Source: Sphingomonadaceae bacterium (GTDB taxonomy: Bacteria; Chloroflexota; UBA6077). Taken from it: a stretch of DNA of 64,000 nt. The position numbers are program-made. Every line of letters starts with the position of its first letter. Position 1 is the stretch's first letter. Where the stretch lies: positions 1 through 64,000 of the forward strand of contig JBLNDL010000042.1 of NCBI GenBank assembly GCA_050261575.1. The letters are read 5' to 3'. Of the stretch, positions 1 through 3,000 are shown in pieces.

Positions 1-3000
1 CCTGCCCCTTCGCCGTTGCTTTCCGCCTGCTCTCCCCCTCACACACCGCGACTCAGTCTTCAGACCCCTCATTTCACCATCCCCACGCCCTGCCCCTATC
101 CGAATCCACGGATTAGGGTCGGTCCACAGTTATTGACCTCCCTGCGGAGATCGGTTAGAATAATCGTGTCCTGAGCGTAGCGTAAGGCGCATTCGTCTAG
201 CGGCCTAGGACACCTCCCTCTCAAGGAGGAGATCACCGGTTCGAATCCGGTATGCGCTACCAGACCTTACAACATTCGAACAGATCGCGTTTCCCGGTAG
301 GGAGGCGCTGATCCGCTCGGGACTGATGGACCGGCTCAGTTGAGCCGGTTTTGTCGTTCAGCGTCGCGCCCTGTCGCGAGGCAGGGTGAGGATCGAAACC
401 CATGCAACAATCCCCCTATAATGTTGCAAAGACCAGCTTCGAAAGGGATGTCTCATGGCCGAAAATGGCGCGCCCGGGCTGCCCGTCCCGGCATCGCATG
501 CAACAGTAGTCGCGAAACGTGCTGGGCTGCCCGCCCGGCGGGGGCTGGATCGGCTGCCGGTCTACGTGACGGCCGAGGAGGCCCGGGCCATCATCAACGC
601 CACCCGGGGTTTCCGGGACCGGCTGCTCCTGGAGACCATCTGGCAGACGGGCGGTCGCATCAGCGAAGTTTTGCGGCTACGGCCGGCCGACGTGGACCCG
701 GCCGACGGCACGATCCGGCTGGCGAACCTGAAGCAGCGCCGGGGCGCGGAGAAGGTCGTCTACGTCTCCCTGGACCTGGCGGCGCAGCTGCGGGCGCTGG
801 CCCGGGATCTCCGGGTGCCCCTGAACGGCTACCTCTTCCAGGGCCGGAACCCCGGGCGGCCCATGACGCGGTTCCAGGCCTACCGGATCATCTCGGCGGC
901 CGCGCGGGCCGCGGGCGTCCTCAAGGTCCACCCCGAGAGCGGGCGGGTGATGCCGGCGTGGCCCCATACCTTTCGGCACGGCGCGGCGAAGCACCAGCTA
1001 GAGCAGACGCTGAGGCTCGATTTCGTGCAGGATCAGCTTGGCCACGCCAGCCTGGAGACGACGAAGGTCTATCTACGGTTGGCAGACGCGGACCGGCGAA
1101 GGCTCAGGGACCAGATCAGCTACTAGCGGGCTCAGGCCTGTGTCGCACCGCCTCTAGGTAGGCTGAGGCGTCGCGCTGGACGTTGATCTTCTGGGCCGTC
1201 AGCGGTCGAGCCCTCTCCACGCAGCGCGCCGGCACCGTGGCCATGTCATTGTTCCTTCGCCGGGGTCTTGGTGAGCGCCGGCGGTACCGGCAGTCCGAGC
1301 TGCTGGAGGTTCGCCGTCAGGTCGCCCACCAGGGCCGCCACGACCACCAGCCAGACGGCCGTGGAGTAGGGCTGCCATTCGGGCATCACCTCGGCCACCA
1401 GCCGCACGGCTCCATAGCCGAGGATGTATGGCACCACCTTGCTCCCCAGGAAGGCGGCCAGCCGGGAGAGCTGGAATTGGCCGGCTCGGATCGATGCCGC
1501 GATGCCGAGCAGAACGTCGGCCCCGATCAGGGCCAGGATCAGCCGCACCTGGTCGTTGGCCAGGGTGGCTGCCAGCAGGTCACGCAGTGCTAGATCAGTC
1601 ATCGTATTGCCTCCAGATCATTAGGTCCCCGAGGGGCATGGGGCCGGCTGTCGATGCCTCGGTCTCCCGGGCGGCGAGCTCGGCCTCGCCGCCGGCGATC
1701 ATCGCGGCGGCGATGACGGCCGGCACCTCCACCAGCTCACCCCTCTTGCCCCTCCAGTGGTTCACGAGGAGCCGCACCGTCAGCCACTCCATGGCTCCCT
1801 TCCTAAATCAGGGTCTTCAGCCCCAAATCGGCGGCGAGGGCCGCCTGGTTCACCAGTTCGCGAAGTATGGCCTCCATGGCCGGTCCTGTAGCTCCTCCTC
1901 GTCTGGACTACCGGACGCCCAGCTGGGCAAGTTTGGCCATGATCCTGGATCGCAGCTCGTCCGCCCGCTGGTCCCCCTTCGGAAACACGTCGCTCTTGCC
2001 GTCGAACCAGCCGCCGTAGAGGGCGGTGCCGTCCACCTCGGCGTGGGTAGGGAACGCCAGCGGGACGGTCGGGAACACGGCGCGGACCTGCTGGACCACC
2101 CAGCAGAATGCCCTCACCTGGGCGTCGGTGATCGGGTCATCGGCCGTCCCCTGGGCGAACTCGCAGCCCACGTAGTAGCGGCTGCAGCCCCGCGCGTGCC
2201 AGCACCAATGGTCCCAAGGGAGGTGCTGTGCAACCACATCGTCGCCAACAGTGCACACGGCACCCAGCCCGTCGGTCCGGGTCATCTCGTACTGCGCCGC
2301 TCCGGGGAACTCGTCGGCCACCGGCCGCGAGACCCCAGACCTCGTGCCATGCAACAGGAAGCCCCTAGGCACGGTCAGGTAGGGGAATCGGTTGGAGATG
2401 GCGGCCAGCGGCATCTGTAGCACCCGCGGCGCGTATCCCGAGGCTGGGGGCACGTAATCGGCCTCCCAGGACCAGCGCTCGGTGTTCAGCCGCTCGTGCA
2501 CCTGCCCGTCCGGCCCCGTGACCCAAGTACGGTACCCATCGGTGAAGGCGGTCCAGTTGTCGGCCTTCCGCCACACCAGCAGGCCGTTGGTGGTGGCCTG
2601 CAGGCCGTCTCCGTTGGGGCTGTCGTGGTGCTCGTTCTCCAGGGGCGTCCCGACGATATCGGGGCCCAGTAGCCGGGCCAGCTCCGCGAATCCGAGCCGA
2701 AATACGGGTTGTTCCTGATCGCTCATTGGTTCATCTCCACTACAGTCTCGGGTATCTGTCGCTCCTGGGCCTTCAGCGCACCCAGGTCCTCGGCGGATCG
2801 GATGGCCATCCTGAGCGCCTTGCTCTCCGACTGCAGGGCTGCCACCACCACCCGCAGCGATTCCACTCGACCACGCAGCGAGTCCATCTCTGCCTGCAAC
2901 TTCTCCAGGCGGTCCCACATGGCGTCGGCTCGGGCGGCCCAGGCCAGCTCGGTCTGCTGCCGTATCTGCCGCATGCGCCACAGGGCTCCGGCCAGGGCAG

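Follow-up and report, generated by a model that had tools for sequence, protein, structure and literature searches.

An intact solitary type I-C CRISPR repeat, probably at the left end of a double jelly-roll provirus in Chloroflexota, and its tentative reading as an RNA anti-CRISPR decoy

Faure and colleagues are said to have pointed out in 2019 that mobile elements carry solitary CRISPR repeat units, and the locus described here would be of that kind: a lone repeat, probably within a mobile element, and unlinked to cas genes. Among the closest of the described systems are the RNA anti-CRISPRs, or Racrs. RacrIC1, a validated Racr of type I-C, was presented by Camara-Wilpert et al. (Nature 2023, PMC10651486) as an RNA that inhibits type I-C; it follows acrIC5 at a distance of 11 nt, and the two are transcribed together from a promoter that has been mapped. 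That paper also states that 83% of the solitary repeats in viruses and prophages whose hosts have CRISPR-Cas match the subtype of the host, and its supplementary file 3 lists 13 solitary repeats from viruses that end in ...GGGTGAGGATTGAAAC on the 3' side, as does the repeat described here. Two further groups of RNA are related. Type I-C crlRNA genes are solitary repeats that, as outlined in a preprint (bioRxiv 10.1101/2024.12.27.630466), regulate Nezha, Gabija and CRISIS systems, and the viral Cracr RNAs of another preprint (bioRxiv 10.1101/2024.10.29.618823) are described there as virus-borne, crRNA-like RNAs directed against type I systems, I-C among them.

The present locus resembles RacrIC1 and the other Racrs in being an intergenic solitary repeat of the host's subtype I-C, probably in a prophage, with the hairpin present. 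It is unlike RacrIC1 in having neither an acr neighbour nor a promoter of its own, and in the terminator-like hairpin directly upstream; it is unlike the Racrs in a handle that carries C where the family has T, and in its probable carrier, a double jelly-roll (DJR) virus. With the type I-C crlRNAs, in the form the first preprint gives them, it shares a repeat-like unit, a predicted Cas5c cut site, an 11-nt handle, a short stretch and a 3' hairpin, whereas those genes lie inside cas operons with a partly matching promoter target nearby, and this repeat lies far from cas genes, with no target found. The Cracr RNAs, going by what the second preprint says of them, are alike in being virus-borne, as the repeat probably is; they differ in that the repeat here has no seed plus TTC PAM target in the genome or the I-C locus, the PAM being assumed.

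The stretch of DNA analysed (the window) is contig C42 (JBLNDL010000042.1), positions 1-64,000, and the genome scanned comprises 3.72 Mb, taken on both strands. At 363-399 (+ strand) it holds a genuine, structurally intact solitary type I-C repeat, recognised by repeat scan, Rfam and RNA fold. The survey's finding had been that this is a single 37-nt copy of the repeat of the host array (C58:64974-67783), almost alone of its kind in the genome, and on these points it holds. The copy is full length and identical to the host repeat at 30 of 37 positions, the seven changes falling at 6, 15-19 and 32; a genome scan with up to 10 substitutions allowed gave just two sites beyond the array, C42:363 (7 changes) and C31:49834 (9 changes). 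Chance is a long way from explaining such a match: when the host repeat was permuted at random 120 times and every version run over both strands of the 3.72 Mb, the best reached 27/37, and none scored 28 or more.

The structure of the repeat is equally well kept. The Rfam model CRISPR-DR9 (RF01322) is covered over positions 1-37 of its 37, on the + strand, with 32.9 bits, against 34.1 bits for the genuine host repeats, both of them lower than the curated cut-off of 45; all 9 of the model's pairs are standard in the lone repeat. The fold energies reported earlier were reproduced, at -18.0 kcal/mol (z -3.4) for the lone repeat and -14.6 kcal/mol for the host's. In the predicted stem, 367-375 pairs with 380-388 over nine pairs, two of them G-U, around the loop GCGA, and the 11-nt handle that follows, AGGAUCGAAAC (389-399), matches the host handle at 10 of 11 positions. 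Cas5d is reported to recognise the stem base together with the 3' overhang from which the 11-nt tag is made (PMC5965381); in those parts the lone repeat retains C5-G26, has G-U in place of A6-U25, and keeps the 10/11 handle. Going by the same account, the cut made by Cas5c would be expected between 388 and 389.

It was also claimed that most of the changes lie in the hairpin loop, so that the parts read by the Cas proteins are kept. Five of the seven do lie in the loop region, and only two outside it, but the clustering alone is no proof of selection on the lone copy, because arrays of related species differ in their loops likewise. Handle position 32 is C in the lone repeat and T in the host and in all eight family-repeat loci, which come from five related genomes, and the lone repeat is five changes away from the repeat of another Chloroflexia genome compared with seven from the host's. 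Judged on its bases, the lone repeat is not specially matched to this host, and most likely it was copied from an I-C array of this repeat family that was not necessarily the host's own. In blastn-short it scores 28.2 bits against the host's repeat and, at best, 34.2 bits against the family repeats compared; the SRUFinder cut-off is a BLAST bit score of at least 41.1 to a catalogued repeat (PMC10651486), where the scoring settings may differ and the paper's database of 17,823 repeats is not the one compared here. No match was returned for the exact repeat (with Y at position 32) in the genome-contig collection, for the family repeat pattern in the viral-contig collection, or for the G6/C32 variant in the metagenome-contig collection. 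One soil-metagenome contig (X2) over 361-399 has the repeat, 33 other letters and the repeat again, which looks to be an array in that metagenome with a repeat at least 85% like the lone one.

The solitariness of the copy was borne out as well: between 150 and 700, no position reaches 17/37 to the host repeat. The best local match to the lone repeat itself in that range, 19/37 at 287 in the tRNA trailer, was considered as a second degenerate repeat and rejected as near background, since that level is reached by about 0.15% of window positions. A decayed array remnant, which the survey had named as a threat to its own reading, was rejected too, since a second repeat, a leader and adjacent cas genes were looked for and none was found, nor were further degenerate repeats at 70-76-nt spacing. 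A decayed or collapsed array that leaves an orphan terminal repeat would likewise have exact repeat boundaries and differ from the working array; it is unlike the window in these missing parts and in the closeness of the window repeat to working repeats in Rfam (32.9 vs 34.1).

The repeat stands beside, and probably within, an island of about 31.7 kb (~349 to ~32,086) that had been called a DJR provirus, rightly so by the fold of its capsid protein. The major capsid protein (13277-14320, - strand) was modelled with a pLDDT of 85.9 and a pTM of 0.87, and Foldseek matched the model to the STIV MCP (3.3e-16), PRD1 P3 (7e-14), PBCV-1 Vp54 (7e-13) and PM2 P2 (3e-10). At the left end lies a small tyrosine recombinase or integrase of 223 aa (455-1126, + strand; PF00589, 5e-24; phrog_216 integrase, 8e-32), matched in its catalytic domain only, whose gene starts 55 nt after the lone repeat and runs, like tRNA-Glu, in the orientation of the repeat. 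It is followed on the - strand by the lysis genes (1246-3062), a holin (1246-1602) and an amidase endolysin (1908-3062) recognised by profile matches, and by a P-loop ATPase (3046-4101) which, from AAA-type matches that are all below the Pfam cut-offs, is a candidate for genome packaging. A protein scan gave a tailspike-like beta-helix protein (9905-12331), and profile matches gave a D5-like primase-helicase of the replication module (18035-20623, - strand). A large serine recombinase with Resolvase and Recombinase domains (30483-32204, + strand) marks the right end. None of the 37 island proteins was recognised as a terminase, a portal or an HK97-type capsid protein, and no recognisable acr or aca neighbour was found among them in a scan made without a dedicated Acr library.

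Relatives of this virus are few. The integrase has one unrelated 26% match in the genome-contig collection and one 44% match among 401 genomes of the phylum; the ATPase and the capsid protein have no matches in the viral-contig collection, and the capsid protein is matched in one of 65 other genomes of the class and at three distant loci. Capsid homologues also include P0001 (92% identity) and P0002 (64%, on a 32.5-kb contig). No credible lone repeat is present in the related DJR elements (the capsid relative in G060, the integrase relative in G019, and L048-L050), relatives too few for a conservation test of the repeat. A weak CRISPR-DR29 match in L030 was dismissed as a false positive: it falls within a coding sequence, an array of this type is missing from G060, and matches of similar weakness turn up in control genomes.

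On the side of the host, the I-C operon is complete as stated earlier, with cas3, cas5c, cas8c, cas7c, cas4, cas1c and cas2, and the array holds 38 exact copies of the repeat plus one cut by the contig end. The absence of spacers against the island was likewise upheld for the 37 I-C spacers, the comparison leaving aside the 14 of the second array on contig C5; the best match was 19 nt with one mismatch. As none of these spacers targets the island, a present need for an anti-CRISPR is not apparent.

How the repeat might be transcribed is a question of its flanks. Promoter prediction found two sites, against 0.2 in shuffles, each with 10 of 12 consensus matches. The first (133-161, + strand; TTGACC, 17 nt, TAGAAT) is that of tRNA-Glu (186-262, + strand; anticodon CTC), a gene of the host whose sequence two relatives from the same family share at 98% identity. 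No other promoter is predicted upstream of the repeat, with none in 263-362, and this one is 202 nt away, with the tRNA and a terminator-like hairpin between; it does fall within 250 bp upstream, as the selection rule of PMC10651486 asks. The hairpin, ACCGGCTC-AGTT-GAGCCGGT (330-349), has a T-rich tail to ~358 and belongs to the left copy of a bracketing repeat (317-348; 317-358 with the tail, + strand), delimited by conservation, fold and similarity to 32053-32086. Since its arms and T-run are conserved after tRNA-Glu in the same-family relatives G001 and G003, it is host-type. A consensus terminator scan did not flag it at 330-349. It ends 14 nt upstream of the lone repeat, and the T-run about 5 nt upstream. 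The second site is the predicted integrase promoter (393-422, + strand), with its -35 box TCGAAA (393-398) inside the repeat handle and its -10 box TATAAT at 417-422, directed toward the integrase; its transcripts would not contain the repeat. Because of this overlap the lone repeat and the integrase look like one unit. Around the -10 box, the inverted repeat TGCAACA-N12-TGTTGCA (403-428) forms a hairpin in RNA folds of 325-440; an operator is one possible role for it, a 3' hairpin of the crlRNA type another.

The reading we favour, and hold tentatively, is that this intact solitary I-C repeat at the left end of the provirus, if transcribed, should act as a decoy of the Racr type. Having no promoter of its own, it would need read-through, in the lysogen from the strong tRNA-Glu promoter and in the excised genome from the operon that ends in the serine recombinase. 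Host Cas5c, bound to the base of the stem and to the 11-nt handle, would then cleave the RNA after G388, and the short non-guide RNA so produced would tie up Cas5c and Cas7c in dead-end complexes. The survey had read the repeat as such a decoy against the host's own system. Of that claim, the real, intact and solitary I-C repeat, the complete host system and the DJR provirus stand, and the decoy reading is partly supported, while transcription, Cas5c binding and inhibition we infer. It is weakened by the missing promoter, by the terminator-like hairpin 14 nt upstream and by a nearby promoter that fires away; by the lack of an acr or aca neighbour, the related proviruses without the repeat and the lone copies that stand before housekeeping genes; and by the C at position 32 and a repeat closer to that of another genome (5 changes) than to the host's (7).

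Several of these points would also be expected of a passenger relic, that is, a repeat carried over from a related I-C array by recombination or imprecise excision, functionless, and intact only through recent capture. We consider this rather unlikely. It would account for a repeat at the outermost edge of the element, which is where flanking DNA comes to lie when it is captured, for the missing promoter and the terminator-like hairpin directly upstream, for virus relatives that have no repeat, and for a loop and two other bases that differ as they do between the repeats of related species. A relic of this sort may be at hand in the sister copy at C31:49834, which matches the host repeat at 28/37 and the lone repeat at 30/37, with four derived bases common to both. 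It sits in ordinary host DNA, 14 nt before the start of sucA, with no remnant of the provirus island in its flanks; its fold is no better than shuffles (z -0.8), it has no Rfam match at E up to 10, and by its sequence it is visibly decaying. The window copy, however, has no such decay, being within 1.2 bits of working repeats in Rfam, with a stem stronger than the host's and only two of its seven differences outside the loop. Nor would junk be expected to point the same way as the next gene, as all eight of the lone copies examined in the clade do.

This shared orientation leads to another reading, in which sense lone I-C repeats are an element of 5' leaders across the clade, and the one in the window would act in cis on integrase transcripts that arise by read-through. 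It would be a site for Cas5c processing or loading, or a stabilising or insulating hairpin, with no decoy in trans, and both the reading and the role that goes with it seem to us improbable. The eight lone copies examined, a small sample taken from the top of one scan, without L025 and three copies close to contig ends, all run in the direction of the gene that follows, at a distance of 3-159 nt; these genes are sucA (G000, contig C31), amtB, an ArsR-type regulator, clpC, ctaG, an unknown gene, ubiD and the provirus integrase. The handle GAGGATTGAAAC is exact in four of the six copies of relatives. At one of these, L042, the lone repeat comes after a promoter and a hairpin with a T-run, in that order, much as in the window, and viral copies are embedded in leaders too: L057, which is catalogued as a solitary repeat of this family in a virus, differs from the window copy in having a promoter of its own, 9 nt upstream, and has a Shine-Dalgarno site and the ATG of an HTH gene 17 nt downstream of the repeat. 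Against these likenesses, lone copies are not conserved at orthologous sites, none being found upstream of sucA at six loci of relatives or after tRNA-Glu at 14, and among the relatives' copies only L042 has an upstream promoter called by the tool. A role that depends on Cas proteins cannot hold in G001 (97% complete) and G018 (96% complete), which carry lone repeats and in which cas5c and cas7c were not detected, unless the genes went unassembled. Lone repeats of this family are not virus-specific in the clade.

One may go further and suppose that Cas5c cuts these leaders and that Cascade proteins load on the stretch with the RBS, so that CRISPR-Cas would serve as a post-transcriptional regulator of host and viral genes through lone repeats throughout the Thermomicrobiales. 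The provirus copy, reached by tRNA-Glu read-through only when integrated, would then tune the integrase to the state of the host I-C system and soak up Cas5c as well. We give this extension, in both its parts, little credence.

It is also conceivable, and in our opinion quite unlikely, that the repeat is not virus-borne, having already been in the chromosome, between the tRNA-Glu terminator and the site of integration, or being part of the recombination site. The survey had conceded a possible host-side location; bracketing hairpins leave the repeat probably inside the island, 14 nt from its left end, but the crossover point was not found by alignment. At the right-hand side, a hairpin with a T-rich tail (32053-32098, + strand) agrees with 317-348 in 26 of 34 aligned columns and is probably the right boundary; its hairpin, GGGCCGGCTC-GCTC-GAGCCGGCCC at 32,069, is traversed by the open frame of the serine recombinase. 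Of the three occurrences of the pattern CCGGCTC-N3-6-GAGCCGG in the 3.72 Mb, one falls within a coding sequence; the other two, at 331 and 32,069, are the sole intergenic copies of this terminator-like hairpin in the genome and stand on either side of the island. When 310-362 was compared with the whole genome in an unbiased BLAST, the right-junction copy ranked about 12th, and the chance of such a match falling in the ~535 nt of candidate right-junction DNA is about 1-2 in 1000. Beyond it the synteny of the host resumes (32664-33537, + strand) with mntP (32664-33218) and tatA (33187-33537); mntP lies downstream of tRNA-Glu in G003, and tatA comes after tRNA-Glu in order-level relatives. Because of the bracketing copies, and because the host-type hairpin and T-run end before 363, we take the repeat to lie probably inside the island; in relatives that share the tRNA-Glu and its terminator the repeat is missing from this place (absent at 14 of 14 loci scanned), and the integrase promoter overlaps it.

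What speaks for the host side is that host-conserved sequence reaches to within about 5 nt of the repeat, that lone repeats occur in plain host DNA, and that no exact direct repeat marks the junctions: alignments of 340-460 with 28,780-28,990 and 31,950-32,520, direct and inverted, were all at shuffle level. The crossover point could not be located because the left hairpin looks wholly host-type and the right one wholly different, and the attachment sites are those we infer from the two similar hairpins. The 12-mer CTATAATGTYGC (416-427 and 28,885-28,896), which as attachment core would put the repeat outside the island, was rejected: its score of 9.5 is not significant against shuffles (7.7 +/- 1.1, max 11), and both copies are -10 boxes. 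A look-alike of the repeat at 32,505-32,541, in the mntP leader, scored no better than chance matches and has no Rfam CRISPR match. An empty-site search with the terminator 22-mer gave no match in the metagenome-contig collection, and contigs of three soil DNA runs mapped on 1-20,000 were short fragments, none of which bridges the left junction.

A guide-like RNA of the crlRNA or Cracr kind, in which the repeat, the 16-35 nt downstream and the 403-428 hairpin would steer Cascade to a promoter with a partial match, belonging to cas genes or to some other defence system, and repress it, is barely credible in mechanism or in target, for although the layout is that of a type I-C crlRNA (repeat-like unit, then 3' hairpin), the hairpin folds, and viral Cracrs for I-C are reported (bioRxiv 10.1101/2024.10.29.618823), no repeat-adjacent seed of at least 9 nt with a TTC PAM (assumed) was found anywhere in the genome or near the cas operon, the two 10-nt matches have GTG and GGA in the place of the PAM against ~7 matches expected by chance, and 400-428 has no match of at least 13 nt elsewhere in the genome.

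The decoy had been presented as new, and here a part stands: the probable carrier is a tailless DJR virus of Chloroflexota. The gain is incremental, since both Racrs of type I-C and solitary repeats of this family in viruses are already on record. If the repeat is transcribed and active, RNA anti-CRISPRs would be known from a tailless double jelly-roll virus in Chloroflexota as well, and the decoy would draw on read-through from a tRNA promoter of the host and not on a promoter of its own. It is worth pointing out that lone I-C repeats in this order are not confined to viruses, and stand in sense orientation just upstream of housekeeping genes; they are also present in genomes without detectable I-C genes, which cautions against reading every solitary repeat as an anti-CRISPR. 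The lone repeats of the clade may be a sign that repeat hairpins have another use in gene leaders, one not yet described.

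The 37-nt sequence at 363-399 (+) is a genuine, intact and solitary type I-C CRISPR repeat. It agrees with the repeat of the host array at 30 of 37 positions, with the changes at positions 6, 15-19 and 32; the array itself (C58:64974-67783) holds 38 exact copies plus one truncated where the contig stops. When the 3.72-Mb assembly was searched in full, allowing at most 10 substitutions, there were two matches outside the array, 363-399 and C31:49834-49870 (28/37). The best match of a permuted repeat was 27/37, with none at 28 or above (120 permutations, both strands), and because the permuted controls never reach 28/37, both lone copies are, judged by their sequence, real derivatives of the repeat. 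The Rfam model CRISPR-DR9 covers 363-399 over its full length on the + strand with 32.9 bits, against 34.1 bits for the host repeats, both below the curated cut-off of 45 bits; the alignment gives the lone copy nine stem pairs, every one of them standard, around a GCGA loop. Predicted RNA folds gave -18.0 kcal/mol for the lone copy and -14.6 kcal/mol for the host repeat. No second repeat, degenerate ones included, was found at array spacing around the copy. The survey's finding of a single repeat with a preserved hairpin at these same energies, and with the C31 copy as its only companion outside the array, was thereby reproduced. Exact copies of window bases 1-118 are also present at the ends, or close to the ends, of contigs C60, C48, C41, C17 and C6; this is a dispersed repeat, at which the assembly broke off shortly before tRNA-Glu.

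The host has a complete I-C operon (cas3, cas5c, cas8c, cas7c, cas4, cas1c and cas2). None of the 37 spacers of the I-C array, the array to which the comparison was confined, matches the island; with one mismatch over 19 nt, the best match comes from a GC-rich spacer that has many such matches. The family pattern of the repeat, GTCGCRCCCTG-N8-CAGGGTGAGGATYGAAAC, was found at eight loci in five Chloroflexota genomes labelled Thermomicrobiales, Sphaerobacteraceae or Chloroflexia. Position 6 is A and position 32 is T at all eight, and each has a different loop. The lone copy is five changes away from one of these repeats, as against seven from the host repeat. G6 preserves the base pair in G-U form and is also the base of the broader Rfam consensus; C32, the sixth base of the 11-nt handle, is a departure from the family. 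Cas5d is reported, in the review PMC5965381, to recognise the stem base and the 3' overhang, leaving an 11-nt tag. The earlier statement that the stem and the 3' handle are kept thus stands for the parts recognised by Cas5d except for the one handle base C32. That the changes lie mostly in the loop is also correct (positions 15-19), but it is not by itself proof of selection, because any copy from a sister array would show the same clustering. In a soil metagenome (run X2), one contig shows, on 361-399, the repeat, 33 other letters and the repeat again, so an array whose repeat is at least 85% like the lone copy is present in that sample. The second repeat family of the host genome (array C5:147182-148212) also has a lone copy, C1:14865-14901 (-), at 31/37 and with a 34-nt direct repeat on either side; this arrangement resembles a mini-array of two repeats with the repeat of the other system as its "spacer".

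The description of the surrounding island as a double jelly-roll (DJR) provirus is confirmed by the predicted structure of a 347-aa protein encoded at 13277-14320, the model of which (pLDDT 85.9, pTM 0.87) matches the DJR capsid proteins of STIV (3.3e-16) and PRD1 (7e-14), and also those of PBCV-1 and PM2. It has 15 homologues in the protein collection; P0001 (92% identity) and P0002 (64%, on a 32.5-kb contig) are capsid homologues. Within 455-28,824, 37 island proteins were called, starting at the left end with a small tyrosine recombinase (455-1126), for which only the catalytic domain was matched. The others include a holin, an amidase, a P-loop ATPase, an SLT lysozyme, a beta-helix spike-like protein, a D5-type primase-helicase, XRE and M78 regulators and a methyltransferase; none of the 37 was recognised as a terminase, a portal or a capsid protein of tailed phages. 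The right arm (24898-28824) carries co-oriented genes for an NYN-domain protein, a phrog_9592 protein, a D12 adenine methyltransferase and an M78 peptidase, which may form an accessory or defence module. The island extends past its first-apparent end at 28,824, with a trypsin-like peptidase (28950-30464) and, at the right end, a large serine recombinase (30483-32204); it carries recombinases of two types, one at each end, either of which may integrate the virus. The host gene order is taken up again only at 32,664, with mntP and tatA. The relative G003 has mntP downstream of tRNA-Glu, and a tatA-like gene directly follows tRNA-Glu in five order-level relatives; these five include the unpublished genome G037 (locus L011), without which the pattern stands and which is used for no other claim.

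At the tRNA-Glu locus, the DNA-level likeness of the relatives is confined to the tRNA. Two genomes of the same family (G001 and G003) have a hairpin, ACCGGCTC-loop-GAGCCGGT, followed by a T-run, 60-110 nt after tRNA-Glu, and the same hairpin stands in the window at 330-349 with a tail to about 358. Since hairpin and tail are common to these two relatives, host-type sequence reaches to about 5 nt from the repeat; a repeat-like sequence after tRNA-Glu is absent in all 14 relatives' loci scanned. No exact direct repeat was found between the island junctions. Positions 317-348 can be aligned with 32,053-32,086, with 26 of 34 columns matching, and the motif CCGGCTC-N3-6-GAGCCGG occurs three times in the whole genome (331; 32,069; and once in a coding region of contig C78). 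As this motif was picked after the alignment had been seen, an unbiased BLAST of 310-362 against the genome was added: the right-junction copy ranks about 12th, and the chance odds of such a match in the roughly 535 nt of candidate right-junction DNA are about 1-2 in 1000. The two hairpins are, on this sequence comparison, the probable ends of the element, which would place the island at about 349 to 32,086 and the repeat 14 nt inside. The left hairpin is wholly host-type in look, with an A...T closing pair like that of the relatives, whereas the right one is wholly different, with a G...C closing pair, so the two do not fix a crossover point and a plain Campbell picture fits poorly. The open frame of the serine recombinase passes through the right-hand hairpin into host DNA. 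We consider it quite likely that the repeat is inside the island, and the lone copy is probably carried by the provirus at its left end. A 12-mer, CTATAATGTYGC, present at 416-427 and 28885-28896, was rejected as an attachment core, its match being not significant against shuffles; the copies precede the integrase and the trypsin-like peptidase gene, and both resemble -10 boxes.

A consensus scan of 1-1300 gave two promoter-like sites, where shuffles give 0.2. One is the tRNA-Glu promoter (133-161). The other is a predicted integrase promoter, whose -35 box TCGAAA (393-398) lies in the repeat handle and whose -10 box is a perfect TATAAT (417-422); its predicted start at about 429 is downstream of the repeat, and it would drive the integrase. 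The scan predicted no promoter between tRNA-Glu and the repeat. A terminator-like hairpin, labelled so from its conservation after the tRNA and its T-run (the consensus scan gave no terminator call), ends 14 nt before the repeat. With no promoter of its own and this hairpin upstream, sense transcription of the repeat would need read-through, which in the lysogen could come from the tRNA-Glu promoter and in the excised genome from the co-oriented operon whose last gene is that of the serine recombinase. A catalogued viral solitary repeat of the same family, on the 17-kb IMG/VR contig L057, differs from the window copy in having its own promoter-like site 9 nt upstream. That contig carries two lone family repeats, 533-569 and 4537-4573, 4 kb apart, and 17 nt downstream of the first an HTH gene has its ribosome site and start codon ATG.

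Solitary repeats in viruses are not new. RNA anti-CRISPRs (Racrs) are described as viral solitary repeat units that sequester Cas proteins. One of them, RacrIC1 of a Bifidobacterium prophage, is an inhibitor of a I-C system and follows acrIC5 on a shared transcript at a distance of 11 nt (PMC10651486, available text). The same text gives 2,103 catalogued viral solitary repeats, with a host-subtype match in 83% of those whose hosts have CRISPR-Cas, and candidates chosen by sequence and structure likeness to the repeat and a promoter within 250 bp. In its supplementary file 3 the string "I-C" occurs 2,014 times, about two per row; the ...GGGTGAGGATTGAAAC end, as in the family of the lone copy, is found in 13 rows, and the ATCGAAAC end in none. 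Chloroflex-, Tectivir- and Varidnaviria have no mention in the main text or supplementary text, the files of which are without taxon names. Type I-C solitary repeats, consisting of one unit and a 3' hairpin, can also yield regulatory guide-like crlRNAs (bioRxiv 10.1101/2024.12.27.630466, available text), which viruses can imitate as Cracrs (bioRxiv 10.1101/2024.10.29.618823, available text). The RNA fold of the window has a comparable 3' hairpin at 403-428 after the lone copy; no partly matching target with a TTC PAM was found for such an RNA. Taken together, we tentatively regard a Racr-type decoy as the single most likely function of the lone copy, a reading that comes from resemblance. Several local features speak against it. 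A terminator-like hairpin stands immediately before the repeat, the predicted integrase promoter faces away from it, the handle base C32 is odd, and no acr or aca neighbour was recognised among the 37 island proteins, in contrast to RacrIC1 beside acrIC5. In addition, related elements have no such repeat, and lone repeats also occur in ordinary host DNA.

The C31 copy (L032:435-471) is one of the latter. It matches the window copy at 30/37, and both share the derived bases G16, A17, G19 and C32 relative to the host repeat; by these bases the two seem to come from one repeat variant other than that of the present array. It stands in plain host DNA, 14 nt ahead of the first codon of sucA, the gene for 2-oxoglutarate dehydrogenase E1, with no island remnant around it, and the upstream regions of sucA in six relatives have no repeat. 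It folds no better than shuffled sequences, and its hairpin is decaying. A recent passenger relic is a serious rival explanation of the window copy, itself somewhat unlikely but not far behind the decoy.

The decoy reading must also be seen against the wider clade. When 39 genomes of the order, the host included, were scanned with CRISPR-DR9, the matches were arrays plus full-length lone copies inside long contigs, seven of which were fetched. One, L046, has a partial second repeat and was set aside as an array remnant; the other six are L041:6007-6043 (-), L042:6015-6051, L043:6076-6112, L044:6094-6130, L045:3587-3623 (-) and L047:1509-1545. They lie 3-159 nt upstream of the next gene and are co-oriented with it, the genes being amtB, an ArsR-type regulator, clpC, ctaG, an unknown gene and ubiD. 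With the sucA and integrase copies included, co-orientation is found in 8/8, a count that leaves out L025, where the downstream gene was not called, and three copies of genome G026 near contig ends. The L025 copy (2888-2924, -) is a lone family repeat in a 12.7-kb Thermomicrobiaceae contig of non-viral context; it follows a PHP-type phosphatase-like gene, as read from translation, and is followed by a hairpin 45 nt later. Models of Cas5c and Cas7c had no match in G001 (97% complete), G018 (96%), G004 (64%) or G026 (83%), although genes can be missing from assemblies of this kind without being absent from the organism. Given these copies in plain host DNA of the relatives and of the host, lone I-C repeats are not virus-specific in the clade. 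Their constant sense orientation suggests a role at the level of RNA, or else that no other orientation is tolerated. A cis-acting leader element, placed before the integrase as others stand before their genes, is an improbable but still competing explanation of the window copy. As for the Racr-type decoy, Racrs are an already known kind, to which the lone copy would add a member; the more surprising lead is the clade-wide occurrence of sense-oriented lone repeats before housekeeping genes.
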